Assembly (NCBI GenBank): GCA_038057515.1
Contig: JBBUDB010000017.1
Coordinates: forward strand, 1 to 44,522
DNA from: Patescibacteria group bacterium
GTDB lineage: Bacteria; Patescibacteriota; Minisyncoccia; UBA6257; 2-01-FULL-56-20
Length of the DNA stretch: 44,522 bases
Direction of reading: 5' to 3'
Part shown: piece by piece, positions 6,459-29,707 of the stretch
How the letters are laid out: each line of letters starts with the position of its first letter
Position numbering within the stretch: the stretch's first letter is position 1
Made by a program: the position numbers and the translations under genes
The notes under the pieces: model-generated
What the model saw: the letters and a program-made list of their open reading frames with translations, nothing else
Database searches by the model: none
What the model was told of the DNA's origin: nothing

Positions 6459-7307
6459 ATGAGCAAAGAGACGACGATCGTGGGAGGTTCGTTCGAGGCC
6501 GTTTTCAATCCGGTGATCACCGACGCGCTCATCGCCGCCGGTCGGGAGGCCCTGCGGATCCGTATCTACGGGGCGCTCGGCGTGGAGGAGAAGACCTCCC
6601 CGCAGGACATCGTGACGGAAGCCGACAAGGCCGTCGAGCGTCTGCTCGTCGCGCGCATCGCCGAGCAGTTCCCCCAAGACGGCATCATGGGCGAGGAAGG
6701 CGCTACTCGGAACACCGAGAACGGCAGGGTGTGGTATCTCGATCCCATCGATGGCACTACGAACTTCGCTGCTGGGAGCGACTTCTTCGGCATCTCGGCG
6801 GGTCGGTTTGATGCCGACGGCCGTCCCGAGATAGGAGCCATTCACTTTCCGGCGCTCGCCAACAGGCCGACCGTTTACGCGGTTCGCGGGGGCGGCGCGC
6901 TCCATCGCTCTGATAGGGTGGAAAGAATCGTGACCCCGCTCTTTGACGGCGGTCTCTCGGAGGCCCTCGTCAGTGTTGGGCTCACGAAGGATAAGAGCCA
7001 CATTTTCGCGCCACTTCACTCCAGGGCGCGGAATGTCGTCGCCTTCGGCTCGTTCGTCTACGAGGCGATGCTTGTCGCCGAAGGCAAGCTCGCGGCCTAC
7101 GTCCACACCGGGGCGACCATCTTCGACGTGGCCGCCGCCGTCACCGTCTGTCGCGAGGCGGGGTGCCTCGTTTCGGGCATCCACACGGTCGAGGTGGATT
7201 TCGCCGCAAAGAGGATTCCCATCATGATCACGCGCGGCGAGCGTCTCACGAGCGAGCTCCGCGAGGTCTTCGTCGCAAACTGGATGTCGCCCGATTGGCA
7301 GCCGTAG
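6459..7307 (+). CDS. inositol monophosphatase family sugar-phosphate phosphatase
   Basis: IMPase motifs EEG...WYLDPIDGTTNF and a C-terminal FDVAAA-type block. Confidence 0.75.
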   Translation: MSKETTIVGGSFEAVFNPVITDALIAAGREALRIRIYGALGVEEKTSPQDIVTEADKAVERLLVARIAEQFPQDGIMGEEGATRNTENGRVWYLDPIDGTTNFAAGSDFFGISAGRFDADGRPEIGAIHFPALANRPTVYAVRGGGALHRSDRVERIVTPLFDGGLSEALVSVGLTKDKSHIFAPLHSRARNVVAFGSFVYEAMLVAEGKLAAYVHTGATIFDVAAAVTVCREAGCLVSGIHTVEVDFAAKRIPIMITRGERLTSELREVFVANWMSPDWQP

Positions 7308-7334
7308 CCACGAGGTGGCGTATCGTCAAAAAAA

Positions 7335-7370
7335 GCGCGCGTTTCTCATGTCGGGGAGCGCGCGTCTTTT
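7335..7370 (+). terminator. possible intrinsic terminator after the IMPase gene
   Basis: A-tract, self-complementary GCGCGCG at 7335-7341 and 7358-7364, then TCTTTTGCTCTT. Confidence 0.35.
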
Positions 7371-7383
7371 GCTCTTCGGCGTC

Positions 7384-7413
7384 TTTACGACGTTTTCTTG
7401 CTCGTGCTATGAT
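7384..7413 (+). promoter_or_regulatory. candidate extended -10 promoter, leaderless geometry
   Basis: TTTACG, 18 nt, TGcTATGAT (-10 at 7408-7413). Only 9 nt separate the -10 box from the ATG at 7423. Confidence 0.4.
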
Positions 7414-7422
7414 GGGTGGATT

Positions 7423-8436
7423 ATGAGTGGTTTCGAACCAGCCCGGGGGCAGAAAACAGCCCTCGTTTGCGGCGGCGGCGGGTTTATCGGCAGTCATCTC
7501 GCCCGGCGCCTGAAGGACGAGGGATTCTGGGTGCGCGTCGTGGATCTCAAGCGTCCCGAATTCAGCGAGACGGCCGCGGATGATTTTGTGGTCGGCGATC
7601 TGCGTCATGAGGTGACCTGGGAAAAAGTTCTCGACCGCCCGTTTGACGAGGTGTATCAACTCGCGGCCGATATGGGCGGCGCGGGCTATATATTCACTGG
7701 CGAGCACGACGCCGAGGTGATGCACAACTCGGGGAGCATTAATCTGCACATGGCCCATTACGGCGTCTCCCGTAGCGTCGGCAAGATATTCTATTCTTCA
7801 TCGGCTTGCATTTATCCGGCCTACAACCAGGAAGATCCGGATAATCCGAAGTGTCACGAGGACTCCGCCTATCCGGCCGCGCCCGACAGCGAGTATGGCT
7901 GGGAAAAGCTTTTTAGCGAGCGGATGTATCTCTCGTTCCACCGGAACAACAACCTCGATGTGCGCATTGCTCGTTTCCATAATATTTTCGGACCTGAAGG
8001 CGCCTGGCGCGGCGGACGCGATAAGGCGCCGGCGGCCGTCTGCCGTAAAGTGGCGGAGGCAAAAGATGGCGGCGAGATAGAAATATGGGGAGACGGCAAG
8101 CAGACCCGTTCGTTTCTTTACATTGACGAATGCCTGGAGGGGATACGACGACTGATGGATGCAAAGGACTTCCGCGGCCCGGTCAATATCGGTTCCGAGG
8201 AGATGGTGACCATCAACCAGCTCGCCGGGATGGCCATGGAGATCGCCGGCAAAAAACTCAACATTAACCATGTGCCGGGGCCCCTAGGAGTGCGCGGCCG
8301 GAACTCCGACAACCACCTTATTAAAAGGGAACTCGGCTGGGCGCCGAGCCGACCCCTCCGTGAGGGGCTTGCGAAGACCTACGCCTGGATTGAGGCTCAG
8401 GCTCAACGCCTCAAAGAAACGGAGGCAAAAAAATGA
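7423..8436 (+). CDS. GDP-mannose 3,5-epimerase-like SDR
   Basis: GGGGFIGSH Rossmann motif. The block RFHNIFGPEGAWRGGRDKAPAAVCRK closely matches my recollection of plant GME (RFHNIYGP.G.WKGGREKAPAAFCRK). YGWEK gives YxxxK. The listed ORF starts at 7315 but the N-terminal extension looks non-coding. Confidence 0.7.
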   Translation: MSGFEPARGQKTALVCGGGGFIGSHLARRLKDEGFWVRVVDLKRPEFSETAADDFVVGDLRHEVTWEKVLDRPFDEVYQLAADMGGAGYIFTGEHDAEVMHNSGSINLHMAHYGVSRSVGKIFYSSSACIYPAYNQEDPDNPKCHEDSAYPAAPDSEYGWEKLFSERMYLSFHRNNNLDVRIARFHNIFGPEGAWRGGRDKAPAAVCRKVAEAKDGGEIEIWGDGKQTRSFLYIDECLEGIRRLMDAKDFRGPVNIGSEEMVTINQLAGMAMEIAGKKLNINHVPGPLGVRGRNSDNHLIKRELGWAPSRPLREGLAKTYAWIEAQAQRLKETEAKK

Positions 8437-9608: not shown

Positions 9609-10073
9609 ATGTCGAAGGAACCCCGAAGATTAAGCGACGAAGAATACCGGTTCACGTACAGTCGGGCGCCCCGGATATGCGTCGACCTAATCGTTCACAA
9701 AGAAAACAGTTTTCTTTTAACGAAAAGAGCGATAGAACCGTTCAAGGGGCTTTGGCACTTTCCCGGCGGCCGGATCTTTTATAAAGAGTCCGTTGACGAG
9801 GCGATAGCGAGAATTTCGGAAGCGGAAGTCGGCCTGACGGTGAAGAATAAAGAGCTCCTAGGCTATCTTGAGGTTTTGGAGGACGGCAAATACGTCCACA
9901 GCGTGAGCATGGTCTTTCTCGTTCAGTTCGACTCCGGAGAGATACGCGGCAGTCTGCAGGCGCAGGAAGTAAAGATCTTTGAAGAAATTCCCGAAGACAC
10001 GCACCCCGTTCATGAAGAATTCTTGCGTACTCACTGGAGTTACATTTCGAGCAGGTTGAAGAATCCGGCCTAG
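9609..10073 (+). CDS. Nudix hydrolase, GDP-mannose mannosyl hydrolase-like (Gmm/NudD type)
   Basis: Degenerate Nudix box GGRIFYKESVDEAIARISEAEVGL resembles E. coli Gmm GGRVQKDETLEAAFERLTMAELGL (R-[LI]-[ST]-x-A-E-x-G-L). It sits directly before fcl. Confidence 0.55.
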   Translation: MSKEPRRLSDEEYRFTYSRAPRICVDLIVHKENSFLLTKRAIEPFKGLWHFPGGRIFYKESVDEAIARISEAEVGLTVKNKELLGYLEVLEDGKYVHSVSMVFLVQFDSGEIRGSLQAQEVKIFEEIPEDTHPVHEEFLRTHWSYISSRLKNPA

Positions 10074-10079
10074 AAAACC

Positions 10080-11048
10080 ATGGCGATCAATCTTAAGGGG
10101 AAAAAAATCCTCGTCACCGGCGGCCACGGGTTTTTGGGCGGCCACGTGCTTCATCGTCTCCGGGCGATTGGCGTGCCAGGAGAAAATATTTTTACGCCCT
10201 CCGCGACGGAGCTTGATTTGCGGCGACTGGAACATTGTGAGCAAGCCGTTGTCGGGCAGCACATCGTGATTCATCTTGCCGCCAAGGTGGGCGGCATCGG
10301 GTTCAATCTGGAAAAGCCGGGTGAGATTTTCTACGACAATCTTTTGATGGGCGCCCAGTTGATGGAATCGGCTCGCCGCGCCGGCGTCGAAAAATTCGTG
10401 GCTATAGCCACCATCTGCGCGTACCCAAAACTTGCCCCGGTGCCGTTTCGCGAAGAATATCTCTGGGACGGCTACCCCGACGAAATAAACGCGCCTTACG
10501 GTCTCGCGAAGAAAATGCTTCTCGTCCAAGGACAGGCCTATCGCCGCCAGTACGGCATGAACGCCGTGACGCTTTTCCCGGTAAACCTCTATGGTCCGGG
10601 TGATAACTTCGACCCGGGCTCAAGCCATGTGATTCCGGCGCTCATTAAGAAGGTCGCCGACGCGAAGCGGGAGGGTAGTGATTTTATCGAGGTCTGGGGA
10701 ACCGGCAAGGCGACTCGTGAGTTCCTTTACGCCGCCGATGCGGCCGAGGGTATCGTCTTGGCGACCGAGCGTTATGATAAATCCGATCCCGTAAATCTCG
10801 GCTCCGGGAAGGAGGTTCCCATCAAGGAAGCCATCGAAACGGTTTGCCGCCTCATGGACTTTCGCGGCGAGATTCGTTGGGACCAGACGAAACCCGACGG
10901 CCAGCCCCGTCGAATGCTTGACGTCTCGCGCGCCGAGCGCGAGTTTGGTTTCCGGGCGAAGACCGATTTCGAGACGGGCCTTAAGGAAACGACCGTCTGG
11001 TATCTTGGGACGTACCCACAAGGATACGAAGGAGGCAAGAGGGCATGA
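10080..11048 (+). CDS. fcl: GDP-L-fucose synthase (GDP-4-keto-6-deoxymannose 3,5-epimerase/4-reductase)
   Basis: [15 protein letters not shown] (YxxxK), [37 protein letters not shown]. These are canonical Fcl blocks. Confidence 0.85.
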
Positions 11049-12171: not shown

Positions 12172-12750
12172 ATGATCAATCGGATTAATCGACAAATCGA
12201 GGATTACATCGCCTTGGCCGGCGTATTTCGGGATCCGGCGTTTGCCGAGCGGATGATCGCCGCCATCCGCCTCATCGAGGCGGCGTTTCGGCAGAAAGGC
12301 AAGGTGCTCGTTGCCGGCAATGGCGGCTCGGCCGCTGATGCCCAGCACTTCGCGGCCGAGTTCGTGTGCAAGTTTAAGCGTGAGCGGCCGGGATACGCGG
12401 CCATCGCGCTCACGACCAACACCTCCGTTTTGACCGCCTGGAGCAATGATTACGATTTCAAAGATGTTTTTGCTCGCGAGGTCGAGGCGCTCGGCCGTGC
12501 CGGTGACGTATTTGTCGGTATTTCTACTTCCGGGAACTCGGAGAATGTAATCCGAGCCATCACGAAGGCGAAAGGGATTGGCCTCACGACCGTCGCCATC
12601 CTCGGCCATGATGGCGGACGCACGAAAGGCGTGGCCGATATCGAGATCGTCGTGCCGTCGAATAATACACCGCGTATTCAAGAGGCGCAGATGTTCATCT
12701 TGCACGCAATCGCCGAGGAGGTTGAGGCCCTGCTCGCGGGACAAAATTAG
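12172..12750 (+). CDS. gmhA: sedoheptulose-7-phosphate isomerase (SIS domain)
   Basis: VAGNGGSAADAQHFAAEF, ISTSGNSENV, QEAQMFILH. The listed ORF begins at a TTG (12127) overlapping the upstream stop, so the ATG at 12172 is preferred. Confidence 0.8.
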   Translation: MINRINRQIEDYIALAGVFRDPAFAERMIAAIRLIEAAFRQKGKVLVAGNGGSAADAQHFAAEFVCKFKRERPGYAAIALTTNTSVLTAWSNDYDFKDVFAREVEALGRAGDVFVGISTSGNSENVIRAITKAKGIGLTTVAILGHDGGRTKGVADIEIVVPSNNTPRIQEAQMFILHAIAEEVEALLAGQN

Positions 12751-12799
12751 CCCCACCGGCAGTTTTCTGATATATAAACTAAGTACTTATTCTCCAAGC

Positions 12800-13765
12800 A
12801 TGGCCCAGACCATCGTCCCGGAACCGAAGAATACCGAGATAAAAAGTATCACCGCTGGGGACTTTGCCGCCTGTTTCGGCGAAGAGCTTTCGCCGCGGAC
12901 GCGCGCTGTCGCCGAGGCAGGGGATTTTCGTTTCTTCGAGCTTACGCCCGACGAGCGCGACGTTTGCATTCGGACGATCGTCGAGAAGTTTGTTGACCCG
13001 GCCTTCGATCGTTCTGGCGCGCACCGGATCGATAAGTGGGAAAGGGGCTGGGGCGAGAACCTCGCCGAACTTCAGGCCGCGAGCGGAACCGACTTTGCCG
13101 CCACGATCCGGCCGAAGTATTTCGATAAATACGACATTGTTCGTTTTCGCGGTCGGTTCATCAAGGCGCTCGCTTCCGATTTCGAATACCAGATGTTGCG
13201 CGTGATTCTAGCGTGGCTCTTTGAAAAATATCTCGCCACGGCGCCGACGGTCTATGAGTTCGGCTGCGGCACGGGTCACAATCTGCTCTGGCTTCGCGAG
13301 TTCAACCCCGGAGCGAAGCTCGTCGGCCTTGATTGGGCCGTTTCGTCGCAAGAAATCATCGCCGAAATGGTGCGTCGGGGGATACTCGCGGATGCCGAGG
13401 GACGACGCTTCGATTTTTTTAATCCCGATAAAACTCTGGCTCTCGAACCCGACTCGGCTGTTTACACCGTTGCCGCGCTTGAGCAGGTGGGAGAGGAAAG
13501 CGGCAAGTTTCTGGACTATCTTCTCGGGCAGAAACCGTCGGTTGTGGTACACGTCGAGCCGATGGCCGAGTTCTTCGATCCGCAAAACCCCTTGGACGCG
13601 CTTGCCATCACCTACTACAAGAAACGCAATTGGCTTTGGGGGTTGCTCACGAATCTGCGAAAACTTGAAAGCGAGGAAAAGATAGAGATTCTCGAGGCCC
13701 GTCGCACGCATTTGGGACACCTTCTGACGGATGGTTATTCCGTGGTCGTGTGGCGGCCAAAGTGA
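12800..13765 (+). CDS. class I SAM-dependent methyltransferase
   Basis: VYEFGCGTGHNL motif I, LVGLDW motif II. The ORF listed from 12578 overlaps gmhA, so the ATG at 12800 (MAQTIVPEP) is preferred. Confidence 0.65.
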   Translation: MAQTIVPEPKNTEIKSITAGDFAACFGEELSPRTRAVAEAGDFRFFELTPDERDVCIRTIVEKFVDPAFDRSGAHRIDKWERGWGENLAELQAASGTDFAATIRPKYFDKYDIVRFRGRFIKALASDFEYQMLRVILAWLFEKYLATAPTVYEFGCGTGHNLLWLREFNPGAKLVGLDWAVSSQEIIAEMVRRGILADAEGRRFDFFNPDKTLALEPDSAVYTVAALEQVGEESGKFLDYLLGQKPSVVVHVEPMAEFFDPQNPLDALAITYYKKRNWLWGLLTNLRKLESEEKIEILEARRTHLGHLLTDGYSVVVWRPK

Positions 13766-13784
13766 CCTTCTGCGCTGGCTTTTC

Positions 13785-13813
13785 TTGCATCACCACCGGA
13801 CCGGGGATATACT
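13785..13813 (+). promoter_or_regulatory. candidate promoter, leaderless geometry
   Basis: TTGCAT (13785-13790), 17 nt, TATACT (13808-13813), then 9 nt to the ATG at 13823. Confidence 0.45.
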
Positions 13814-13822
13814 GGGAAAATA

Positions 13823-14338
13823 ATGGAATTCGTCAAAACTAAGCTTTCAGGCGTTGTTCTTGTAAAACCGGACGTTCAGGAGGATTTTCGAGGCGGCTAC
13901 GTCGAGACGTACAACAAGAAGGCCTATCAGGGGAATGGCATCGCGCCGGAATTCGTCCAGGACGACATGTCGTTCTCGACGAAGCACGTTTTGCGCGGGA
14001 TTCATGCCGATCAAGAGATCGCGAAACTTGTGTCCTGTGCCTACGGCCGATTTTACTGCGTCATCGTGAACTGCGATGAATCTTCGCCGGACTTCGGCAA
14101 ATGGGAATCGTTCAATTTGTCAGATCGCAATCGTTGGCAGGTCTATGCGCCGCCGAAGCACGGCGTGGCCCACCTTGTCATGAGCGACTACACGATCTTC
14201 CACTACAAACAATCGGGATATTACAATCCGTCGAATCAGAAGAGCTATCGCTTCGACGACCCGCGCTTCAAAATCTGGTGGCCGGTTAAGGCCCCGATCC
14301 TTTCCCGTCGCGACGAAGAGGGAAAATATGTCGACTAG
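13823..14338 (+). CDS. RmlC-like cupin sugar-nucleotide 3,5-epimerase
   Basis: FRGGYVETY, VLRGIHAD, KLVSCAYGRFYCVIV, GVAHLVMSD, FHYKQSGYY. This is the dTDP-4-dehydrorhamnose 3,5-epimerase fold signature. Confidence 0.8.
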   Translation: MEFVKTKLSGVVLVKPDVQEDFRGGYVETYNKKAYQGNGIAPEFVQDDMSFSTKHVLRGIHADQEIAKLVSCAYGRFYCVIVNCDESSPDFGKWESFNLSDRNRWQVYAPPKHGVAHLVMSDYTIFHYKQSGYYNPSNQKSYRFDDPRFKIWWPVKAPILSRRDEEGKYVD

Positions 14339-15281
14339 TCCCAAAAAAATCCTCGTGACCGGCGGTGCCGGCTACATCGGCTCGGTTCTCGTGCCGGAGC
14401 TTTTGCGTCTCGGCCACGAAGTGACGGTTATCGACAGCTTTCTCTACGGCCAGACGCCGCTTCTCGATGTCGTTCACTATCCAACACTCACCGTTGTTCG
14501 GGGCGATGCCCGAAACGAAGAATTGATTAAAAAACATCTCGAGGGCAAAGATGTCGTCATCCCGCTGGCGTGTCTTGTGGGCGCGCCGCTCTGCGACAAG
14601 GACCCGATCGCGGCCGAGACCACGAATCTTGAGGCGATCAAAATGATCGTGCGGTTGCGCAACAAGGCGACCCAGCAGATTATCTTTCCGAACACGAATA
14701 GCGGCTACGGCCGGATGGCTGAAGGCGTGGCCTATTGCGATGAAAATAGCCCGCTTGAACCCGTGTCGCTCTACGGCAAGCTAAAAGTAGAAGCGGAAAA
14801 ACTATTGCTTGCCGACGGCAATGCCATCACCTTTCGGCTCGCCACGGTTTTTGGGGCGAGCCCTCGGATGCGTCTCGATCTTCTCGTGAACGACTTCGTG
14901 TACCGGGCCGTGAACGACCGCGTGGCGGTGCTTTTCGAAGCGCACTTCAAGCGGAACTACATTCACATTCGCGACGTGGCGGCCGCGTTTATCCACGCGA
15001 TGGACAACTTCGAAACGATGAAGAACCAGCCCTACAACGTCGGTCTTTCGGAGGCGAATCTCTCGAAACTCGAGCTTTGCGAGGAGATCAAGCGCGTTTT
15101 GCCCAAATTCGTTTTTATTGAATCGAAGATCGGTGAGGATCCGGATAAGCGTAATTACATTATCTCTAATGCAAAGATCGAAGCGACGGGGTATAAGCCA
15201 AAGGTATCGCTCCCGGTGGGCATTCGCGAGCTCGTGAAGACATACGAGATCGTGAAACGGAACCACTTCGCGAATATCTAA
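14328..15281 (+). CDS. extended SDR, NAD-dependent sugar-nucleotide dehydrogenase/epimerase
   Basis: ILVTGGAGYIGS, YGKLK (YxxxK). Overlaps the RmlC-like gene by 11 nt. Confidence 0.7.
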   Translation: MSTSPKKILVTGGAGYIGSVLVPELLRLGHEVTVIDSFLYGQTPLLDVVHYPTLTVVRGDARNEELIKKHLEGKDVVIPLACLVGAPLCDKDPIAAETTNLEAIKMIVRLRNKATQQIIFPNTNSGYGRMAEGVAYCDENSPLEPVSLYGKLKVEAEKLLLADGNAITFRLATVFGASPRMRLDLLVNDFVYRAVNDRVAVLFEAHFKRNYIHIRDVAAAFIHAMDNFETMKNQPYNVGLSEANLSKLELCEEIKRVLPKFVFIESKIGEDPDKRNYIISNAKIEATGYKPKVSLPVGIRELVKTYEIVKRNHFANI

Positions 15282-15303
15282 GGGCTTACATCTTGGGCTC
15301 TCT

Positions 15304-15330
15304 GGACGGCCAAAAGAGGCCGTTTTATTT
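15304..15330 (+). terminator. rho-independent terminator
   Basis: ACGGCC-AAAAGA-GGCCGT followed by TTTATTTG. Confidence 0.6.
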
Positions 15331-15340
15331 GCCCTAAATT

Positions 15341-15364
15341 CCTTTCCGGCGTACCATGGAAAGG
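15341..15364 (+). promoter_or_regulatory. hairpin sequestering the purine tract before the ATG at 15367
   Basis: CCTTTCC (15341-15347) pairs with GGAAAGG (15358-15364). The latter is the only SD-like sequence, 2 nt before the start codon. Confidence 0.3.
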
Positions 15365-15366
15365 TT

Positions 15367-16329
15367 ATGGCGGAGATAAAACGCAAGAGGATCCTCGTGA
15401 CTGGCGGTAATGCCGTTGCGGGTGATGGCCTGAAGAGCGTCGTTGCGGCGGGCGAATTTTCTGGCCGCGAGTTCGTCTTTCCGGGCTCAAAGGAGTTGAA
15501 TCTTTTGGACGCCGCGGCGACGAGAAAATACGTTGCCGACTGGAAGCCCGATGCTATCGTGCATTTTGCAGCGATCTCTGGCGGCATTCAGCTTACCCTC
15601 GATCATCCGGCGAGTGTGATGCGCGATAATATTCTCATGAACCTCAACGTCGTCGAAGCGGCGCGTCTTTCGGGTGTGACGAAAATAATCATGACGCTTT
15701 CCGCGGCGATCTATCCCATGAATGCCCCGGTGCCGATGAAAGAAGAATCTCTCCACGAGGGCTATCCGCACGAGACGAACTACAGTTATGCGTTCGCAAA
15801 GCGGCTCATTGACCCAATGGCGAAGGCCTATCACAAAGAATATGGTATGGATATCGTTGGTATCATCCCGGGGGCGATCATCGGCCCGAAGAGCAGTTTC
15901 GATCCAAAAAGCTCCACGGCCATCCCGGCGATAATTCGCCGCTTTTACGAGAACCGAGAGGGGGATGGTCCGCTTGTTGTGTGGGGTGATGGATCACCCT
16001 TGCGTCAATTCACTTCCGGTGATGATATTGGTCGGGTGGCCATGTGGTGCGTCGACAATTATAACGAGCCGCAGATGCTGAATGTAAGCACGATGGAAGA
16101 AACCTCCATTAAGGATGCGGCATATATGATCGCCGAGTTTCTGGGAATCGACGCAAAACGCCTAACATTCGACACTTCAAAACCCGCCGGAACGCCTCGT
16201 CAGGCGATCGATAACACGAAGTTCATGAGCTTATCGCATTTCACATATATGCCAGCGCGAGAAACGATAAAAAGAACCGTTGAATATTTTGCGGCGAACT
16301 ATCCCGATCCGAAAAAACTCCGACTCTAA
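15367..16329 (+). CDS. Fcl-like SDR (second GDP-fucose-synthase paralogue), probable NDP-4-keto-sugar reductase
   Basis: LSAAIYP, YSYAFAKR (YxxxK), SSTAIPAIIRRF, VVWGDGSPLRQF. These blocks are collinear with Fcl. Confidence 0.65.
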   Translation: MAEIKRKRILVTGGNAVAGDGLKSVVAAGEFSGREFVFPGSKELNLLDAAATRKYVADWKPDAIVHFAAISGGIQLTLDHPASVMRDNILMNLNVVEAARLSGVTKIIMTLSAAIYPMNAPVPMKEESLHEGYPHETNYSYAFAKRLIDPMAKAYHKEYGMDIVGIIPGAIIGPKSSFDPKSSTAIPAIIRRFYENREGDGPLVVWGDGSPLRQFTSGDDIGRVAMWCVDNYNEPQMLNVSTMEETSIKDAAYMIAEFLGIDAKRLTFDTSKPAGTPRQAIDNTKFMSLSHFTYMPARETIKRTVEYFAANYPDPKKLRL

Positions 16330-16331
16330 AG

Positions 16332-17303
16332 ATGAACTATCGACCACTCGGCAGAACGGGTATCACTGTTTCGGAAGTTGGTTTTGGCACGTGGGGCATC
16401 GGCGGAGAAACGCCCGGCGCCACGTCCTATGGGCCGACCGACGATACCGAATCAAAACGCGCCCTCGAAACCGCTTTTGAGAACGGCATTACGTTCTACG
16501 ACACATCGGATCTTTACGGTGCTGGCCACGCCGAGGAACTCTTGGGAGAGGTCTTCTCGAATCGCCGCGAGAAGATCGTCATCGCGAGCAAGGTTGGCTA
16601 CGTCCAGCATGGGGGACCGCACGATTTTCGACCGATGTGGATCCGCGCGCGGGTCGAGGCAAGTTTGCGCCGCCTCAAGACCGACTACCTCGACGTTTAC
16701 CAACTCCATAGTCCGCCGATGGATCAGCTTCGCGCGACACCTGGCGCGATTGAAGAGATGCACGCATTAAAGAGAGAAGGTAAGATTCGTGCCATCGGTA
16801 TCTCCGTAAAGAGTCCGAAAGATATTCAGGCGGCAATCGAAGAGTTTGGCGCCGAGACCATTCAGGTTAATTTCAATCTCATTGATCAGCGGGCGCTTGA
16901 TGACGGTTGGTTCGCGTTCGCCGGTAACCGGGGCGTTGGCATCATCGCGCGCACACCACTCGGCTTCGGATTCTTGAGCGGCGCCATCACCGATCTTCAT
17001 TTTCCGCCAAGCGATCATCGTTCGAACTGGCCCGAGGGCCAGCTTCGTCGCTGGGCCGAAGCACCGAAGCTTTTCGCGTTTTTAGGCGAGGGGCGCGAGG
17101 CATCGCCCACCCAGATCGCTTTGAAATTCTGCACGAGCTTTTCCGAGGTCGGCGTCGTGATCCCCGGCATCCTGCACCCGTCGGAGGCGGTAGAAAATGC
17201 CGCCGCGAGCGAAATCCAGAGCTTCACGGCCGAAGAGATTGCCCGAGCCCGCGAGGTCTACAAGGACAACGAATTTTTCGACAAATCGCTGAAATCGAAG
17301 TAA
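16332..17303 (+). CDS. aldo/keto reductase
   Basis: LGRTGITVSEVGFGTWGIGG, FYDTSDLYGAGHAEELLG, IASKVG, YQLHSP. These are AKR signatures. Confidence 0.8.
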   Translation: MNYRPLGRTGITVSEVGFGTWGIGGETPGATSYGPTDDTESKRALETAFENGITFYDTSDLYGAGHAEELLGEVFSNRREKIVIASKVGYVQHGGPHDFRPMWIRARVEASLRRLKTDYLDVYQLHSPPMDQLRATPGAIEEMHALKREGKIRAIGISVKSPKDIQAAIEEFGAETIQVNFNLIDQRALDDGWFAFAGNRGVGIIARTPLGFGFLSGAITDLHFPPSDHRSNWPEGQLRRWAEAPKLFAFLGEGREASPTQIALKFCTSFSEVGVVIPGILHPSEAVENAAASEIQSFTAEEIARAREVYKDNEFFDKSLKSK

Positions 17304-17316
17304 ACTGGGCTCCACG

Positions 17317-18141
17317 ATGATAGAAGCTGCTCTTGGGGAGGATTTATTTGGCCGGGCGAAGCACATCCGCCGGGACATCGTCGAGATGATCTACCGGGCG
17401 AAAAGCTCTCATATCGGTTGCGCGCTTTCTGCGGCCGATATTCTTACCGCGCTCTACTTCGGCGGGGTTTTGCGCATTGATCCGAAAAGCCCAAAAGCGC
17501 CGGGGCGGGACCGGCTCATCTTAAGCAAGGGCCATGCGGTGACGGCTGTGTACGCCGCTCTCGCCGAGCGCGGTTTTTTCCCAAAAGAAAAACTTCTTGA
17601 ATATGGGACCGATGGCACGACGCTCGCGAGCCATATCGTCCTTGATGTTCTACCGGGAACGGAAACCTCAAGCGGTTCCGGGGGTCACGGCCTACCGATG
17701 GGTGTCGGCATGGCGCTTGCCGCTCGGGCGGATAAGAACGGCGCCCGGATATTCGTGCTTTCGGGTGACGGCGAGCTCGAAGAAGGATCGGCGTGGGAGG
17801 CGATGCTTTTTGCCGGACATCATAAGCTTTCGAATTTGAAACTTATCGTTGATCGTAACGATCTTCAAGACGGCGTGGATGGTCTTCGGGTGAGCGATGT
17901 TCTTGATCTGAATCCTTTAGACGAAAAGTTCCGAGCCTTCGGCTGGGAAGTTGATATCGTTGACGGCCATGATCCGGCCGCCCTCATCCCAGCGCTCAAA
18001 AAGGAGACGGCTCGACCACACGCCATAATCGCGAAGACAGTAAAGGGAAAGGGGGTATCTTTCATGGAAAATCGGGGCGAGTGGCATGGGAAGTGCCCGA
18101 ATGCCGATGAGTACGCAATCGCGATAAAAGAACTATCTTAA
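17317..18141 (+). CDS. transketolase, N-terminal (ThDP pyrophosphate-binding) subunit
   Basis: GHIGCALSAADIL, LSKGHAVTAVYA, GSGGHGLPMGVGMA, LSGDGELEEGSAWEA. Confidence 0.85.
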   Translation: MIEAALGEDLFGRAKHIRRDIVEMIYRAKSSHIGCALSAADILTALYFGGVLRIDPKSPKAPGRDRLILSKGHAVTAVYAALAERGFFPKEKLLEYGTDGTTLASHIVLDVLPGTETSSGSGGHGLPMGVGMALAARADKNGARIFVLSGDGELEEGSAWEAMLFAGHHKLSNLKLIVDRNDLQDGVDGLRVSDVLDLNPLDEKFRAFGWEVDIVDGHDPAALIPALKKETARPHAIIAKTVKGKGVSFMENRGEWHGKCPNADEYAIAIKELS

Positions 18142-18149
18142 TTATCATC

Positions 18150-19064
18150 ATGCGCTTCTCCGTCATAGAAACTATCTATAAAGCCGGCCTCAAGGATCCG
18201 AATCTTTGCTTTATCACCGGTGATCTTGGGCACATGAATACGGCGGAGTTTCGCCGGGATTTCGCCGGCCGTTTTTGGAACGCTGGCATGTCCGAGCAGA
18301 ACATCATTGGCATGGCGGCGGGTTTAGCTCTTTCGGGCAAACAAGCGGTGGCCTATTCGATCGTGCCATTCATCACCCTCCGTTGTTACGAACAGATCAA
18401 GGTTGATGTTTGCGACCACAATGCGAACGTGATCATCGTCGGTGTCGGCGGGGGATTTGCCTACGGTTCGGCTGGGCCGACCCACTATTCAATTGAAGAG
18501 GTTGCGGCCTTGCGGGTACTGCCGAATATGAAGATAGTTTGTCCGGTTAATCCGACCGAAACCAGGGTTTTGACCGAGCAAATCTTGCGGGCCGGTGGAC
18601 CGGCCTACATTCGCATCGGTCGTGGTAAGGAACAAGATTTTGAGCTTGGATATGTTCCCGTGCTTGGCAAAGCCGGTGTTCTCCGGGCGGGAACGGATAT
18701 GACGATCATTGCAAGCGGCACGATCGGGACCGAAGCGCTTCGTGTCGCCGACATGTTGCAAGAAAAGGGATTTTCCGTCGAGGTGGCGAATATGCATACG
18801 ATAAAACCCATCGATGCGGATTTCATCGCCGATCGGGCGAAATCCCGGCGGGCCATCTTTACGCTCGAAGAACACAGCGTTCTCGGCGGTTTAGGCGGAG
18901 CCGTTGCCGAGGTGCTCGCAGAGCTTCCCGCGCGGCCGCTCTTCAAACGTTTCGGTGTTGCCGATATCTGGCCAGAGGTTGTCGGTTCCCAGCAATATCT
19001 TCGCGATCACACTGGTATTTCGGCTGAAAAGGTCGCGCTGGCAATCAAACGCATTCTTTCGTAA
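18150..19064 (+). CDS. transketolase, C-terminal (pyrimidine-binding) subunit
   Basis: FWNAGMSEQN, GMAAGLALSGK, GPTHYSIEEVAALRVLPNM, EEHSVLGGLG. Confidence 0.85.
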   Translation: MRFSVIETIYKAGLKDPNLCFITGDLGHMNTAEFRRDFAGRFWNAGMSEQNIIGMAAGLALSGKQAVAYSIVPFITLRCYEQIKVDVCDHNANVIIVGVGGGFAYGSAGPTHYSIEEVAALRVLPNMKIVCPVNPTETRVLTEQILRAGGPAYIRIGRGKEQDFELGYVPVLGKAGVLRAGTDMTIIASGTIGTEALRVADMLQEKGFSVEVANMHTIKPIDADFIADRAKSRRAIFTLEEHSVLGGLGGAVAEVLAELPARPLFKRFGVADIWPEVVGSQQYLRDHTGISAEKVALAIKRILS

Positions 19065-19068
19065 CCAG

Positions 19069-20070
19069 ATGATCATCACCCGAACTCCATTCCGCGTGTC
19101 GTTCTTTGGCGGAGGCACTGATTATCCCGTATGGTACGAGGAGAACGGCGGGGCCGTGCTATCGACGACGATAGACAAGTATTGCTATATTTTCGCTCGA
19201 GAGTTTCCGCCGTTCTTTCCTCAAAAGCTCCGCATCGTTTGGTCCAAGATCGAGTTGGCCGATAACCCCGACGGTATCGAGCACCCTTCTGTTCGTGAGG
19301 TTTTGAAACATCTTGGGCTTCGTGAGGGTATCGAGATTCATCATAACGGCGACTTGCCGGCACGTTCGGGTCTCGGCTCAAGCTCGGCGTTCACGGTGGG
19401 ACTCTTGCACGCGCTTCACGCCTTGAAGGGTGAAATGATGTCGAAGCACGATCTCGCCCACGAAGCGATCCACGTGGAACAAAATCTCATTGGCGAGAAC
19501 GTTGGTTCTCAAGACCAAGTGGCGGCGGCCTTCGGCGGATTCAACAAGATCACGTTTGCCTCAGGCAAGCGCATCGCTGTTGAGCCGATCGTGTTGCCGA
19601 ACGGCCAGCTCGATGAACTGCAAGATCACCTAGTACTTTTCTTTACGGGACTTTCGCGAAACGCTTCCGAGGTGGCCGCCGAGCAGATGCGAAATACGCC
19701 GAAGAAAAACGCAGAACTTAAAAGGATGCATGAGATGGTCGATGAGGCGATTGCCATCCTTAAAAAGGGTACGATGGCGATCGGTGATTTCGGCAGACTG
19801 CTTCATGAGACTTGGCAGTTAAAACGCAGCCTCTCGTCCTCAATCAGCACGTCGGCAATCGACGAGATCTACGACCGAGCTCGGAAGAACGGGGCGGTTG
19901 GCGGGAAACTCTTGGGCGCGGGGAGCGGTGGCTTCATGCTGCTTTTCGTGCCGCCAAAAGACCAGGAGCGGCTAAAGACGGCCCTCAAGGGTCTTTTGTA
20001 CGTTCCTTTCCGATTCGAAAACGCCGGTACGCAGATTATCTATTACGGCCCGAAGACAATTGCTCGTTAG
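19069..20070 (+). CDS. GHMP-family sugar kinase, HddA-like (D-glycero-D-manno-heptose 7-phosphate kinase type)
   Basis: TPFRVSFFGGGTDYP, DLPARSGLGSSSAF (GHMP motif II), GKLLGAGSGGF. The listed ORF from 18904 overlaps the transketolase, so the ATG at 19069 is preferred. Confidence 0.65.
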   Translation: MIITRTPFRVSFFGGGTDYPVWYEENGGAVLSTTIDKYCYIFAREFPPFFPQKLRIVWSKIELADNPDGIEHPSVREVLKHLGLREGIEIHHNGDLPARSGLGSSSAFTVGLLHALHALKGEMMSKHDLAHEAIHVEQNLIGENVGSQDQVAAAFGGFNKITFASGKRIAVEPIVLPNGQLDELQDHLVLFFTGLSRNASEVAAEQMRNTPKKNAELKRMHEMVDEAIAILKKGTMAIGDFGRLLHETWQLKRSLSSSISTSAIDEIYDRARKNGAVGGKLLGAGSGGFMLLFVPPKDQERLKTALKGLLYVPFRFENAGTQIIYYGPKTIAR

Positions 20071-22898: not shown

Positions 22899-24237
22899 GG
22901 CGGCGGCCGCGTTTTTTGCCGTGGCGATTTTCTTGCTCACTTGGCGGGTCGGCTGGCCATGGGCGGCACTGAAATTCTCGGAGTTTTTCTTCGCTCTCGC
23001 CCTGGGATCGCTTGGCTTAACCCTTATGATATCCGCGCCAGCGCGCGCCCGTCTCTGGCGCATCCTGCTCGTCCTGCGCGTTGAGGGGCGGTGGCTCGGC
23101 TTGCTTCTTCTTGCCGCAGTCATTGGGCATGCCGCGAGCATTTTTTTGTCTCTCGACTGGCAGGCCTACGCCGGCGAGATCTGGCTGGAATATAGTCGGT
23201 TGCTCTTATCGGTTTTGCTGTTCTTTGCGGTTATTTACCTTTGCGTTGCGTTTCGGAATTTAAACGCGTATCTTCTCGGCATCGTGATCGTTTCGCCGCT
23301 TACTCTGTGGGCGTCTCTCTTCCCGGCTTGGTATCGGGTGTTTTTCCTCGCCGTTGACGAACGTTTGCGCGGGCCAGGCAGTGATCCGAATTACCTGGGT
23401 AGCTGGCTTGGGTTGGGCGTAATCACCGCCTTCGCCGTTTTTCTTTGGGCGAGAGGCGGGCGGCGCTGGCTGGGTTTATCGGGAATGGTCGGCCTGTTTC
23501 CGCTTCTGCTCTGGACCTCTTCCCGGGGCGCAATCTTGGCTGTCGGTTTGGGGTTTGCCGCCACAGGCTTGAAATATGTGTTGGGCGGCTTCACGCTCCG
23601 GCGCGCGGGTTCGGTCGCGACGGCTCTCACGGCGCTCCTCGTCGGATTTTGGTTATCGTTTGCCGCGGCGCCTCCCCCGGTTCGTGCCGCCATAACTGAT
23701 CGTCTTGTGGTGCCTTTTGTCGGCAGACAAAGCGCGATAGTGATGTTTTTGAACCCGGGCCTCCGCGCCGCTTCGGGCAGTTTAAGCGGCGTGGAGGCGC
23801 CGGTTTTTGAATTAGGCGCGGATCGCCGTAAGCTGTTCTTCGGTGGCGGTCGCCTTTTGCTCGGACATCCCTTTGGCTTCGGCCCGGCTTATTATCGCTG
23901 GCAGCCGGTTGCTTATGCCGGAGACGGCGCCAAGCTCGGCCCTCACAATTTATTTCTAGAAGCGGGACTGACCGGGGGCTATTTGGGCCTCATCGCCCTT
24001 CTTGGTTTTCTTTGGAGCATTGCTCGCCGGTTGGCCGGGTTTTCCTCCGGCGAAAATTGGGTTGGCGGCGCCTTAATCGGGTGTTTTGTGGCGCTTCTCG
24101 CCGTTTCGTTTTCTCTCGACACGCTTACGTTACGGTGGCTGTGGCTTATCATGGGTCTCGTCGTCGCGCGTTCTTTGGATAGTGATTTAACTATCGCGTC
24201 GAGCGAAGGGTTGAGAGACAATGGCGATGAATCGTAA
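22867..24237 (+). CDS. Wzy_C-family O-antigen polymerase/ligase-like membrane protein
   Basis: About 10 or more hydrophobic segments. WTSSRGAILAVGLGF loop, HNLFLEAGLTGG. The ATG at 22867 overlaps the upstream gene by 32 nt. Confidence 0.65.
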   Translation: MRNFLIVWLPRAAAAFFAVAIFLLTWRVGWPWAALKFSEFFFALALGSLGLTLMISAPARARLWRILLVLRVEGRWLGLLLLAAVIGHAASIFLSLDWQAYAGEIWLEYSRLLLSVLLFFAVIYLCVAFRNLNAYLLGIVIVSPLTLWASLFPAWYRVFFLAVDERLRGPGSDPNYLGSWLGLGVITAFAVFLWARGGRRWLGLSGMVGLFPLLLWTSSRGAILAVGLGFAATGLKYVLGGFTLRRAGSVATALTALLVGFWLSFAAAPPPVRAAITDRLVVPFVGRQSAIVMFLNPGLRAASGSLSGVEAPVFELGADRRKLFFGGGRLLLGHPFGFGPAYYRWQPVAYAGDGAKLGPHNLFLEAGLTGGYLGLIALLGFLWSIARRLAGFSSGENWVGGALIGCFVALLAVSFSLDTLTLRWLWLIMGLVVARSLDSDLTIASSEGLRDNGDES

Positions 24238-24814
24238 GTTAAAAAAGCGCGCTGTTTTTCTCGATCGTGACGGTACCCTGGTGCATCTGAAGCTTGGGGA
24301 GTACACAACCAGTCCTAAGCAATTACGTCTTTTGCCCGGCGCCGCCACGGCAGTCCGGGCCTTAAATCGGATAGGATATTCGGTGGTTATCATTACAAAT
24401 CAGGGCGTTATTGCGAAGGGAAAAACGACGCACAAGGAAGTTGACTATTTGCACGCAATACTTATCGATCGATTAGGAAAGAAAGGAGCGCGCGTGGACG
24501 CCGTTTATTACTGCCCGCACCACCCCGAGGGGAAGATCCCGAAATATGCCATTCGTTGCCGCTGTCGGAAGCCGGAGATCGGCATGATCACCAAGGCCAT
24601 GAAAGATATGAGTATTGATATGAAAAAAAGTTTCTTGATCGGCGACACAACGGGCGATATTCTGACCGGCCATCGCGCGGGCCTTACTACCATCTTGGTC
24701 AAAACCGGCTATGGCGGACGGGATAAGAAGCACGACGTGAAACCGGATTTCGTTGTTCGCAATCTCACCGCCGCCGTGCGCTATATCAAGAAACATGCCC
24801 AACCCCAAGGTTAG
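24221..24814 (+). CDS. gmhB: D-glycero-D-manno-heptose 1,7-bisphosphate phosphatase (HAD, GmhB type)
   Basis: FLDRDGTL, TNQGVIAKG, zinc motif CPHHP...CRCRKP, GDTTGDI. Confidence 0.8.
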   Translation: MAMNRKLKKRAVFLDRDGTLVHLKLGEYTTSPKQLRLLPGAATAVRALNRIGYSVVIITNQGVIAKGKTTHKEVDYLHAILIDRLGKKGARVDAVYYCPHHPEGKIPKYAIRCRCRKPEIGMITKAMKDMSIDMKKSFLIGDTTGDILTGHRAGLTTILVKTGYGGRDKKHDVKPDFVVRNLTAAVRYIKKHAQPQG

Positions 24815-27226: not shown

Positions 27227-27928
27227 ATGAAGGCGGTACTTCTCGTCGGTGGGCAAGGGACCCGGCTTCGGCCGGTGACCTACGAAATCCCAAAGCCGCT
27301 TATCACGGTGGGGAAAAAACCGATCGTGAACCATGCCATCGAATTTCTTGACCGGCACGGTATCGATGAGGTCGGCCTGCTCGCCGCTCGCGGCCACGCG
27401 GACGACTTCCGGAGGTGGCGGAAGGGCTGGGCGGATGAGTTGCCCGCGGTGAAGATTAACATGTTCTATGAGGAGTCGCCACGCGGCACCTTCGGCGGCT
27501 TTGAGGTGCTCCGCGAGTGGCTCGGTAACGAAACATTTGTCGTTTCGAATGGCGATGATCTCAAAGATTTCGATCTCACGGCGATGATCGTTGCGCATCG
27601 CAAAAGCGGCGCCGTGGCGACCGTGGCTCTGATGCGCGTGCCCGACCCGGAGAATTTCGGCGTACCCCTTATGGAGGGGAATCGCATCGTTCGTTTTTTG
27701 GAAAAACCGTCCAAGCCGCCGTCGGATTTCGTGAACGGCGGTCTCTACGTGATGGAGCCGGCGGTTTTTGACTACGTTGATTTTAAGAAGCCCACCGTGA
27801 TGATCGAGCGCGACCTTTTCCCGGCGCTTGCCGAGGGGGGTTTGCTCTACGGTTTTCGCGGCGAAGGCGCCCGGTGTTTCGATTGCGGCACGCTTGAGCG
27901 TTGGGAACGGGCGATGAACGAGTGGTAA
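27227..27928 (+). CDS. sugar-1-phosphate nucleotidyltransferase (HddC/ManC-like)
   Basis: MKAVLLVGGQGTRLRPVTYEIPKPL signature, FLEKP, GLYV. Confidence 0.75.
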   Translation: MKAVLLVGGQGTRLRPVTYEIPKPLITVGKKPIVNHAIEFLDRHGIDEVGLLAARGHADDFRRWRKGWADELPAVKINMFYEESPRGTFGGFEVLREWLGNETFVVSNGDDLKDFDLTAMIVAHRKSGAVATVALMRVPDPENFGVPLMEGNRIVRFLEKPSKPPSDFVNGGLYVMEPAVFDYVDFKKPTVMIERDLFPALAEGGLLYGFRGEGARCFDCGTLERWERAMNEW

Positions 27929-28868: not shown

Positions 28869-28966
28869 CGATCGTTCTCCTTGGTTAGTGCCCTGTGACA
28901 AATCCGAAAAAACAATCCGGTAGCTATGAGTACAATGCAAGATAATCTTAAGATAGTCAAGTTCCG

Positions 28967-29008: not shown

Positions 29009-29707
29009 ATGAAGGCCATCATCCTTGCCGGCGGTCGGGGCACGCGCCTCCGACCGGTCACTTATGAGATTCCGAAGCCGCTCGTGCCGGTCAAAAAGCG
29101 GCCGATCGTTAATCACCTCATCGAGTTTTTCCGCCGCCACGGCGTTGAGGATATCGGTATTCTGGCGAGTCGGGACCACGAAGAAGATTTTCGGCGCTGG
29201 CAGAAAGTTTGGGATGACGAAGTGGTCAAGGGGATAACGATGTTCCACGAAGAAACCCCGCGCGGCACTTTCGGCGGGTTGGAGCCGCTCCGCGAGTGGC
29301 TGGGCGGCGAGCGTTTTATTCTCTCGAATGGCGATGAGCTCAAAGATTTCGACCTCGCGGCGATGGAAAGATTCCACGGCGCCCAGGGAGGTACGGGCAC
29401 GATCGCGCTGGTTGAGGTGCCGAATCCATCGGAATATGGCGTGCCCGTTATGGATGGCCACCACATCAAACAATTTTTGGAAAAACCAAAAGAGCCACCG
29501 TCCAATTTCATCTCCTCGGGGCTTTATATGCTCGAACCAGAGGTCTTTAAACACGCTGACTTCAGCCAACCGATCGTCATGATCGAGCACGACATCTTTC
29601 CAAAACTAGCCGCCGAGGGTAAGCTCTATGGATTCAAGCCGCCGAATGCTCGTTGGTATGATTGCGGCACACTCGAACGCTGGGAGCGGGCGATCAAAGA
29701 GTGGTAA
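29009..29707 (+). CDS. sugar-1-phosphate nucleotidyltransferase, paralogue of 27227-27928
   Basis: MKAIILAGGRGTRLRPVTYEIPKPL. Collinear with the first copy along the whole length, roughly 60% identical by eye. Confidence 0.75.
   Translation: MKAIILAGGRGTRLRPVTYEIPKPLVPVKKRPIVNHLIEFFRRHGVEDIGILASRDHEEDFRRWQKVWDDEVVKGITMFHEETPRGTFGGLEPLREWLGGERFILSNGDELKDFDLAAMERFHGAQGGTGTIALVEVPNPSEYGVPVMDGHHIKQFLEKPKEPPSNFISSGLYMLEPEVFKHADFSQPIVMIEHDIFPKLAAEGKLYGFKPPNARWYDCGTLERWERAIKEW

Follow-up and report, generated by a model that had tools for sequence, protein, structure and literature searches.

A putative GDP-heptose tailoring locus of an uncultured Patescibacteria bacterium, with a conserved aldo-keto reductase and an active-site-altered split transketolase

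Which sugar is made by a glycan locus in which an aldo-keto reductase (AKR) and a two-part transketolase (TK) are embedded amongst heptose genes, and what do these two enzymes contribute to it? The locus lies in a 44,522 nt stretch of DNA (hereafter the window) from an uncultured groundwater Patescibacteria bacterium, which, judged by its genes, appears to have a full gene set with which an activated seven-carbon sugar is made and then reshaped. We consider it probable that the operon at its centre leads from sedoheptulose-7-phosphate (S7P) to a GDP-activated heptose and on to its remodelling, and suggest, more tentatively, that the latter includes an extra tailoring branch formed by the AKR and a variant split TK. 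To our knowledge, an altered two-part TK together with an AKR occurs in no characterised heptose pathway. The locus is therefore best described as a putative variant of known GDP-heptose tailoring, with a core that seems ordinary and widespread, and an AKR and variant TK that are conserved and whose role we infer from their setting.

The region from approximately 1851 to 32800 is a single large surface-glycan locus of the Wzx/Wzy type, bordered by RNase Y at one end and by thioredoxin reductase and GroEL at the other. Encoded here are a Wzx flippase and two Wzy-like proteins, together with a priming transferase (Bac_transf), eight or more glycosyltransferases and numerous enzymes of nucleotide-sugar metabolism. 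Between 12172 and 25622 every gene is on the + strand and either overlaps its neighbour or is spaced from it by 2–85 nt, and these genes therefore look like one operon. Open reading frames are present at all of the gene positions given in an initial annotation of this DNA, each with strong family matches. Those of the operon that concern the heptose are as follows:

12172..12750, + strand: GmhA, S7P isomerase with a SIS domain (TIGR00441, PF13580, motif GGSAADAQHFAAEF)
12800..13765, + strand: MT, class I S-adenosylmethionine (SAM)-dependent methyltransferase-like protein of an unnamed family (AlphaFold2 model and Foldseek, motif VYEFGCGTGHN)
13823..14338, + strand: RmlC-type cupin, candidate C3/C5 epimerase of GDP-4-keto-heptose (PF00908)
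14328..15281, + strand: Cj1427-like protein, predicted GDP-D-glycero-D-manno-heptose C4-dehydrogenase, an extended short-chain dehydrogenase/reductase (SDR; PDB 6vo6)
15367..16329, + strand: Fcl2, an Fcl paralogue, putative reductase-only C4-ketoreductase and functional analogue of Cj1428/MlghC (PDB matches, residues)
16332..17303, + strand: AKR with an intact D-Y-K-H tetrad (PF00248)
17317..18141, + strand: TKN, N subunit of the split transketolase-like pair, binding the diphosphate of thiamine diphosphate (ThDP; PDB 6yak)
18150..19064, + strand: TKC, C subunit of the same pair, pyrimidine-binding, with a non-canonical substrate pocket (PDB 6yaj)
19069..20070, + strand: HddA-type GHMP kinase, putative D-glycero-D-manno-heptose 7-phosphate 1-kinase (PDB heptose kinases)
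24221..24814, + strand: GmhB-type HAD-IIIA phosphatase, putative heptose 1,7-bisphosphate 7-phosphatase (NF006506, TIGR00213, motifs)

Both subunits of the TK find their best PDB matches in the split TK of Carboxydothermus hydrogenoformans (TKN to 6yak, 244 bits; TKC to 6yaj, 191 bits), with which they share the two-gene architecture and the ThDP-binding and catalytic residues. TKN keeps the equivalents of E. coli His26, His66, His100, His261, Asp155 and Asn185, and TKC those of Arg358, Glu411, His473 and Arg520 (E. coli TktA numbering), with the 'MR' start of TKC aligning with E. coli Ser357-Arg358. The resemblance to the C. hydrogenoformans enzyme ends, however, in the substrate pocket, where His461 of TKC is replaced by Gly, Asp469 by Ala, and Ser385 is deleted, all three residues being kept in 6yaj. 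In transketolases, His461 and Ser385 bind the phosphate of the substrate and Asp469 the C2-hydroxyl of the acceptor, with Arg358 and Arg520 also being phosphate-binding. As aligned, the pair retains the canonical ThDP-binding and catalytic residues and departs from the canonical set of substrate ligands (Arg358, Ser385, His461, Asp469, Arg520).

This departure is not confined to the window. The nearest 120 homologues of TKC, which are 50–70 % identical to it, carry Gly at position 461 without exception (120/120), and have Ala, Tyr or Cys at position 469. Amongst the nearest 150 cluster representatives at 50 % identity (P0241–P0390), 146 are without His461, mostly having Gly instead, and the canonical S-H-D-H-R combination occurs in two. 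Non-canonical split transketolase-like proteins thus appear to be a very large, mostly unstudied radiation and, with 146 of 150 representatives being without His461, the signature alone does not specify a chemistry.

The AKR encoded immediately upstream matches PF00248 at 1.6e-59 and possesses Asp57, Tyr62, Lys87 and His126; a weak match to L-glyceraldehyde-3-phosphate reductase (65 bits) was also found. The Cj1427-like protein was used as a query with one genome per species, and over 520 relatives were confirmed, with the best 80 being 62–76 % identical; L-numbers below denote homologous loci. The hosts of these 80 are Patescibacteria (the closest), Dehalococcoidia, Omnitrophota, Planctomycetota, Verrucomicrobiota, Kiritimatiellia and others, and the core module is hence widespread in uncultured phyla rather than specific to Campylobacter. 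Partner genes were counted over those Cj1427-like loci that span 12 kb or more (62 in all), and comprise HddA (54/62), an Fcl-like gene (46/62), a B12-radical SAM protein (45/62), a DegT aminotransferase (43/62), a nucleotidyltransferase (36/62), the TK C subunit (25/62), the TK N subunit (15/62), GmhA (7/62), the cupin (5/62), the AKR (3/62) and the MT (2/62). The cupin, AKR and MT are, amongst these 62, confined to loci that also have the TK N subunit.

The window shares its gene order with two further Patescibacteria loci from long contigs (L085 and L088), namely Cj1427-like gene, Fcl2, AKR, TKN, TKC, HddA and a GT2 glycosyltransferase. This shared block is preceded in L088 by GmhA, MT and cupin, and followed in L085 by GT4, Wzy, GmhB, GT2, Wzx and a nucleotidyltransferase. 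AKR orthologues adjoin the TK pair in both of these loci, as well as in L006 and L012, where the AKR and TK pair are directly upstream of the Cj1427-like gene. The AKR and TK are hence a conserved part of the module in the Patescibacteria lineage. When the flanks of the TK pair are considered across approximately 22 loci, a Cj1427-like gene is found in about 10, another SDR or Gmd-like gene in about 4, HddA in about 5 and GmhA in 1, and in every context examined the pair is inside a glycan locus. It is packed tightly against HddA in the window, L085, L088, L017, L019 and L054, and is present in L086 and L089 with no heptose-phosphate genes nearby.

Some of these loci have features of their own. 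L086 (8240–13128) harbours two tandem ThDP enzyme pairs, one TK-like and one resembling E1 dehydrogenases, followed by DegT and SDR genes. The apparent fusion of an SDR to TKN in L007 (6685–7866) consists of an Fcl-like SDR and a TK N domain that are both truncated, probably by a frameshift or as a pseudogene, and was not used as evidence. The module found in 45 of the 62 loci (L007, L010, L016, L017, L019, L022–L026 and others) combines the Cj1427-like gene and HddA with a B12-binding radical SAM protein, a DegT aminotransferase and a dyad-intact Fcl-like protein, and its hosts are Omnitrophota, Planctomycetota, Dehalococcoidia and Verrucomicrobiota. Its gene content implies a predicted amino, possibly C-methylated, heptose; the window is without both the radical SAM and DegT genes.

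What, then, might the AKR and TK do? For the one ketone expected from the Cj1427-like enzyme there are two reductases in the window (Fcl2 and AKR), and the TK pair is encoded beside an enzyme forming a nucleoside diphosphate (NDP)-4-keto sugar and a ketoreductase, as is seen in ThDP-dependent branching systems. The window fits such a branching logic in that it encodes an enzyme forming a 4-keto sugar, a reductase to spare and a ThDP enzyme whose acceptor pocket is altered. From this context and the altered pocket, we tentatively regard keto-sugar branching as the most likely role of the pair. On the strength of context and active-site changes alone, the AKR and variant TK would add a further tailoring branch at the 4-keto intermediate of the core pathway. 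A ketose or hydroxypyruvate would serve as donor of a hydroxyacetyl group, which the ThDP enzyme would attach to the keto sugar as a two-carbon unit, leaving a side-chain ketone for the AKR to reduce; a C2-branched, nine-carbon heptose derivative would result. A more specific version, in which the variant TK is a nucleotide-sugar carboligase that places the hydroxyacetyl unit on the C4 carbonyl of GDP-4-keto-heptose, with subsequent reduction by the AKR to a 4-C-branched nine-carbon sugar, is a possibility that we put forward with due hesitation.

Precedents for such chemistry exist in other enzyme families. In the formation of yersiniose A, YerE/YerF branch an NDP-4-keto sugar with the help of ThDP and then reduce it with NAD(P)H, and ErwE/ErwF do likewise for erwiniose (PMC9306805). 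As in the window, the gene for the ThDP enzyme adjoins those for an NDP-4-keto-sugar-forming enzyme and an NAD(P)H reductase; YerE and ErwE, however, are members of the decarboxylase (acetolactate-synthase-like) superfamily, and their substrate is a CDP-3,6-dideoxy-4-keto-hexose. Other keto-sugar branching relies on the α-keto-acid-dehydrogenase-type pairs of aldgamycin and kibdelomycin (PMC12247030). Split-gene transketolases, an architecture shared by the window, have been proposed, and never tested, for keto-sugar branching in miharamycin and amipurimycin (PMC12247030, section 2.3). In a bioinformatic survey, 13 split TKs were listed as putative keto-sugar enzymes; all are from Streptomyces and none has been characterised (PMC12247030). 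The present pair would differ from them in its likely acceptor (GDP-4-keto-heptose), its surface-glycan locus and its occurrence in uncultured phyla. A literature search on transketolases in heptose or O-antigen clusters returned nothing specific.

The core on which this branch would act begins with the activation of heptose. GmhA has TIGR00441 (gmhA) as its top match at 204 bits, which is 5 below the equivalog cut-off of 209, and its motif GGSAADAQHFAAEF, quoted in the initial annotation, was verified in the sequence. The GHMP kinase has three heptose kinases as its top PDB matches, namely 3k85, 4usk (WcbL) and 4n3o (C. jejuni), at 143–151 bits and E-values of 1e-40 to 6e-43, well ahead of fucokinase (74 bits, 1e-19) and of galacto- and mevalonate kinases (1e-13 or worse), and thus it groups with the heptose kinases. 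Its best NCBIfam match is NF049969 (HddA), at 168 bits against a cut-off of 600. GmhB scores 155 bits with NF006506 (cut-off 178) and 116 bits with TIGR00213, and displays the motifs DRDGT and CPHHP...CRCRKP, the latter a Cys/His loop of the Zn-binding type. By homology, GmhA would isomerise S7P to D-glycero-D-manno-heptose-7-phosphate, from which the HddA-type kinase would form the α-1,7-bisphosphate, with GmhB then taking off the 7-phosphate; a heptose-7-phosphate kinase of the GHMP rather than the ribokinase family gives the α-anomer.

For the final activation step there are two candidates, both downstream of the operon:

27227..27928, + strand: NT1, short GDP-mannose-pyrophosphorylase-like nucleotidyltransferase, candidate heptose-1-phosphate or mannose-1-phosphate guanylyltransferase (PDB 7d72)
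29009..29707, + strand: NT2, nucleotidyltransferase and paralogue of NT1 (61 % identity)

Both belong to the NTP_transferase family. In PDB comparisons they score higher with GDP-mannose pyrophosphorylases (human GMPPB 7d72, 130 bits) than with RmlA (65–83 bits), Yersinia HddC (6jq8, 52 bits) or GalU, which is likewise below the GDP-mannose pyrophosphorylases, and neither of them is RmlA- or GalU-like. Amongst NCBIfam models, man1P_GTase gives 127–140 bits (140 for NT1) and rmlA_long 132–136 bits, whilst HddC gives 75 bits for NT1 and 70 bits for NT2, far short of the equivalog cut-off of 300. Of the four steps from S7P to a nucleotide-activated heptose that were originally read from this DNA, those of GmhA, the HddA-type kinase and GmhB are therefore upheld; for the fourth the nucleotidyltransferases are candidates, being GDP-mannose-pyrophosphorylase-like and not HddC equivalogs.

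Related loci show both types of nucleotidyltransferase. Those of L087 and L009, which are fused or adjacent to GmhB, similarly score above HddC with GDP-mannose pyrophosphorylases, and those adjoining HddA in L007 and L081 are HddC-like. In L085, where GmhA, HddA and GmhB are in the same locus, the sole nucleotidyltransferase is a 61 % orthologue of NT2. The L087 example (14406–15692) is a single protein of 428 aa, in which a GmhB-type phosphatase is fused to a GDP-mannose-pyrophosphorylase-like nucleotidyltransferase, and adjoins an HddA-type kinase. In the window itself, a gene of the inositol-monophosphatase family is located on the opposite strand between NT1 and NT2 (28023–28940).

Remodelling would commence with oxidation at C4. 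The Cj1427-like SDR matches PDB 6vo6 over its full length (residues 6–316) with 56 % identity and an E-value of 1.4e-110, its second-best PDB match being at just 2.8e-25, and it keeps Tyr149 and Lys153 of the SDR Tyr-x3-Lys motif. By homology it would oxidise C4 of the activated heptose; Cj1427 itself contains tightly bound NADH that is recycled by α-ketoglutarate in a ping-pong mechanism (PMC10680097). The stop of the cupin gene and the start of the Cj1427-like gene overlap by 11 nt. The cupin matches PF00908 at 1e-46 and retains His61, Lys68, Tyr128 and Asp164, the catalytic residues of the RmlC fold, whose roles are given in PMC7949155. Its top PDB and NCBIfam matches are dTDP-4-dehydrorhamnose 3,5-epimerases, with 109 bits for RmlC and 101 bits for the C. 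jejuni GDP-heptose epimerases 8db5/8dco. Given that the latter are themselves just 37–38 % identical to RmlC (PMC7949155), and the cupin is 37 % identical to RmlC of E. coli, context rather than sequence decides its assignment, and it is from the 11 nt overlap that we infer specificity for GDP and C7. The cupin, being translationally coupled, would epimerise C3 and/or C5 of the 4-keto intermediate.

Reduction at C4 would then, by homology, fall to Fcl2. This protein matches GDP-fucose synthases at 3e-58 (200 bits) and the C. jejuni reductases 7m13/7anc at 6e-26 (95 bits), and keeps Ser107, Tyr136 and Lys140, whilst the epimerase dyad is lost through replacement of Cys109 by Ala and His179 by Thr. 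Over the five positions, Fcl2 thus reads S-A-Y-K-T, as compared to S-C-Y-K-H for Fcl of E. coli and T-C-Y-K-H for Fcl1, its paralogue elsewhere in the window. MlghC and DdahC of C. jejuni are likewise without the Cys/His dyad of GDP-fucose synthase (PMC7949155). A dyad-less Fcl type is found in the window and in L088, both of which have a cupin, and in 42 related loci lacking a cupin, an Fcl-like gene no more than 3 kb away from the Cj1427-like gene is dyad-intact; L085 is dyad-less too, though no cupin is present within the stretch examined. Across related loci the pattern therefore mostly appears to fit a division of labour between cupin and Fcl, and the earlier proposal of a Cj1430/Cj1428-like pair gains support both from the loss of the dyad in Fcl2 and from the way in which dyad type mostly tracks cupin presence.

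For the methyltransferase, all Pfam matches are under threshold, and a search of PDB sequences gave no match. Its AlphaFold2 model has a pLDDT (predicted local distance difference test) of 95, and the top Foldseek matches are all SAM methyltransferases acting on small molecules, amongst them the sugar O-methyltransferase AtmM, whereby the class I SAM-methyltransferase fold is confirmed at the level of the model. Homologues are on the same contigs as a variant TKC at least 12 times. By homology it would add a methyl group at some position of the heptose; the 6-O-methylation previously suggested is not supported, as what is evident is the fold, with no detectable tie to Cj1426 or to O6.

How far does all of this resemble what is known from Campylobacter? 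The module of C. jejuni NCTC 11168 (HS:2) comprises HddC (Cj1423), GmhA (Cj1424), HddA (Cj1425), the C4-dehydrogenase Cj1427, the C3/C5-epimerase Cj1430 and the C4-reductase Cj1428 (PMC10680097, PMC7949155). Conversion of S7P to GDP-heptose, C4 oxidation, epimerisation by a cupin and reduction by a dyad-less member of the Fcl family would be common to both systems; the dehydrogenases are 56 % identical (via 6vo6, presumably Cj1427), and the window kinase matches HddA 4n3o at 1e-40. The window differs in that its nucleotidyltransferases resemble GDP-mannose pyrophosphorylases and are not HddC equivalogs, Fcl2, at 200 bits with true GDP-fucose synthases and 95 bits with Cj1428, is nearer to the former, the methyltransferase is from an unnamed family, and the host is a member of the Patescibacteria with a Wzx/Wzy locus, as opposed to the ABC-transporter capsule of Campylobacter. 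The AKR and variant split TK have no Campylobacter counterpart. The likeness to the Cj1423–Cj1430 enzyme set that the initial annotation drew thus holds for the S7P route and for the Cj1427/Cj1430/Cj1428-like triad, and does not extend to these genes. Similarly, the four tailoring genes that it placed after gmhA (methyltransferase, cupin, SDR and Fcl paralogue) are as described, whilst the AKR and split TK at 16332–19064 were overlooked; since these are without counterpart in Cj1423–Cj1430, the methylated, stereo-inverted heptose predicted there is probably an incomplete product. The S-layer glycan of Aneurinibacillus thermoaerophilus also uses the GmhA/HddA/GmhB/HddC route and, unlike the window, is not known to have genes for C4 oxidation, epimerisation, reduction or methylation, or ThDP genes.

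A more conventional role for the split TK would be that of a dedicated supplier, forming S7P for GmhA from ribose-5-phosphate and xylulose-5-phosphate, with the AKR clearing glyceraldehyde-3-phosphate or being unrelated, and the final sugar a Campylobacter-type epimerised and methylated GDP-heptose. S7P is the textbook product of TK and the substrate of GmhA, with which the operon opens, both subunits have their best PDB match in a characterised split transketolase, the catalytic histidines of the N domain and both phosphate-binding arginines are all kept, the pair precedes GmhA in L009, and even the weak L-glyceraldehyde-3-phosphate reductase match of the AKR would be accommodated. Against it, His461, Asp469 and Ser385, which are kept in the TKs of E. 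coli, human and C. hydrogenoformans, are lost both here and in the 120 close homologues. In addition, the usual neighbour of the pair is the 4-keto-forming SDR, with GmhA adjoining it in 1 of approximately 22 loci, and the variant pair in L086 and L089 has no heptose-phosphate genes at hand. It also occurs in phyla that are expected to have a normal pentose-phosphate pathway. On balance, S7P supply strikes us as doubtful, albeit worth serious attention. The small pocket residues (Gly, Ala and a deletion) could alternatively be taken as an enlarged acceptor site with relaxed Asp469-dependent stereoselectivity, the arginines being retained, so that the variant TK would build a non-standard ketose phosphate by transferring a two-carbon unit onto hexose-6-phosphate or heptose-7-phosphate, or onto an acceptor whose C2 has the opposite configuration. 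GmhA, HddA, GmhB and the nucleotidyltransferase would then activate an octose, nonose or unusual heptose isomer. The tight packing of the pair against HddA would suit such chain extension, and the lincomycin octose route (LmbR/N/P/K/O) reuses the same logic of GmhA, GHMP kinase, HAD phosphatase and nucleotidyltransferase. We nonetheless think it unlikely, as an SDR that is 56 % identical to Cj1427, an enzyme specific for GDP-heptose (taking 6vo6 to be this protein), argues for an ordinary heptose, the pair seldom adjoins GmhA, and it is found in loci where its partners are limited to SDR, DegT or MT genes.

The core itself could be misassigned if the cupin, SDRs and nucleotidyltransferases were to serve a dTDP- or other NDP-6-deoxyhexose pathway of the rhamnose type, a notion prompted by the dTDP-4-dehydrorhamnose 3,5-epimerases at the top of the cupin matches and by the rmlA_long scores of NT1 and NT2. 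The window contains no RmlA/B/D set, RmlB and RmlD being absent from it, and the SDR that overlaps the cupin is so much closer to 6vo6 than to any other PDB entry; the comparison of 109 and 101 bits for the cupin is, by contrast, undiscriminating, with its 37 % identity to RmlC being just what the C. jejuni GDP-heptose epimerases display (37–38 %; PMC7949155). With GmhA, HddA and GmhB sharing the operon, and the nucleotidyltransferases scoring higher with GDP-mannose pyrophosphorylases, a rhamnose-like pathway seems very improbable.

Keto-sugar branching on a GDP-heptose core, the reading preferred here, must itself be set against a number of contrary observations. The loss of His461 is by itself no pointer to nucleotide-sugar chemistry, and the retention of the phosphate-binding Arg358 and Arg520 in TKC suits a sugar-phosphate substrate. 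In L009 the gene order is TKN-TKC-GmhA-NT-GmhB, which places the TK pair directly upstream of GmhA. As regards the core, NT1 and NT2, being far under the HddC cut-off, could simply be ManC enzymes for the fucose and L-galactose branches. The sequence of the cupin appears to fit dTDP-type RmlC as well as the GDP-heptose epimerases, such that the two are not told apart, and its Ser50 and Val119 are found where DdahB has Ile56 and His123, said to accommodate C7, and RmlC has Ser and Phe, with neither pattern being matched. That 6vo6 is Cj1427 is an assumption, made with the molecule name given by its depositor in view. We know of no transketolase for which a ketone acceptor has been demonstrated. 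For split TKs in particular, carboligation onto a ketone acceptor has not been shown (PMC12247030).

The outcome matters in different ways. The biochemistry of Cj1427-type tailoring comes mainly from Campylobacter, and its core is now seen in more than 520 loci and in uncultured phyla, in a recurrent subset of which it is coupled to a conserved, active-site-altered split TK and an AKR. Should the TK and AKR act on a nucleotide sugar, they would offer a tractable example of a reaction so far just proposed for miharamycin and amipurimycin, and would represent the first transketolase with a ketone or nucleotide-sugar acceptor, as well as the first branched heptose pathway. A branched or extended surface sugar would then be expected on Patescibacteria, whose envelope chemistry is essentially unstudied, and, by way of the related loci, on many further uncultured phyla. 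Were S7P supply all that the pair does, the locus would simply add one more ordinary member to the GDP-heptose family.

Apart from the heptose operon, the glycan locus contains a set of enzymes for other GDP-sugars:

3932–4933: Gmd, GDP-mannose dehydratase (equivalog score of 499 bits, cut-off 415)
7315–8436: GDP-mannose 3,5-epimerase homologue (E=5e-94 to Arabidopsis GME, PDB 2c59)
10080–11048: Fcl1, dyad-intact Fcl paralogue (Cys/His epimerase dyad kept)

Nudix genes are also part of this set. In L088, the Gmd orthologue has a GT11 gene (fucosyltransferase family) on one side and the Fcl1 orthologue on the other, and the orthologue of the GDP-mannose 3,5-epimerase is found a short way upstream. 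Gmd had been considered as a possible source of a deoxy-heptose; as it passes the cut-off for GDP-mannose dehydratase and is accompanied by an intact Fcl1, Nudix genes and a GDP-mannose 3,5-epimerase, it instead serves fucose or L-galactose, and its candidacy as a heptose 4,6-dehydratase was rejected on its score and the L088 context. Gmd, Fcl1 and the GDP-mannose 3,5-epimerase are, in short, an ordinary GDP-fucose/GDP-L-galactose set.

The gene at 7315–8436 was also entertained as a Cj1428 homologue, and was set aside on account of its being a GDP-mannose 3,5-epimerase homologue. It adjoins an inositol-monophosphatase-family gene (6459–7307) and a Nudix gene (5734–6282), a neighbourhood that suggests a GDP-L-galactose or GDP-L-gulose branch within the glycan locus. 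Finally, the NCBI contig copy of the Fcl1 region (L001, 5986–6718) is approximately 240 bp shorter inside Fcl1 than the corresponding part of the window (10073–11045), leaving an open reading frame of 96 aa in place of the 322 aa gene, a discrepancy that reflects either the strain or the assembly.

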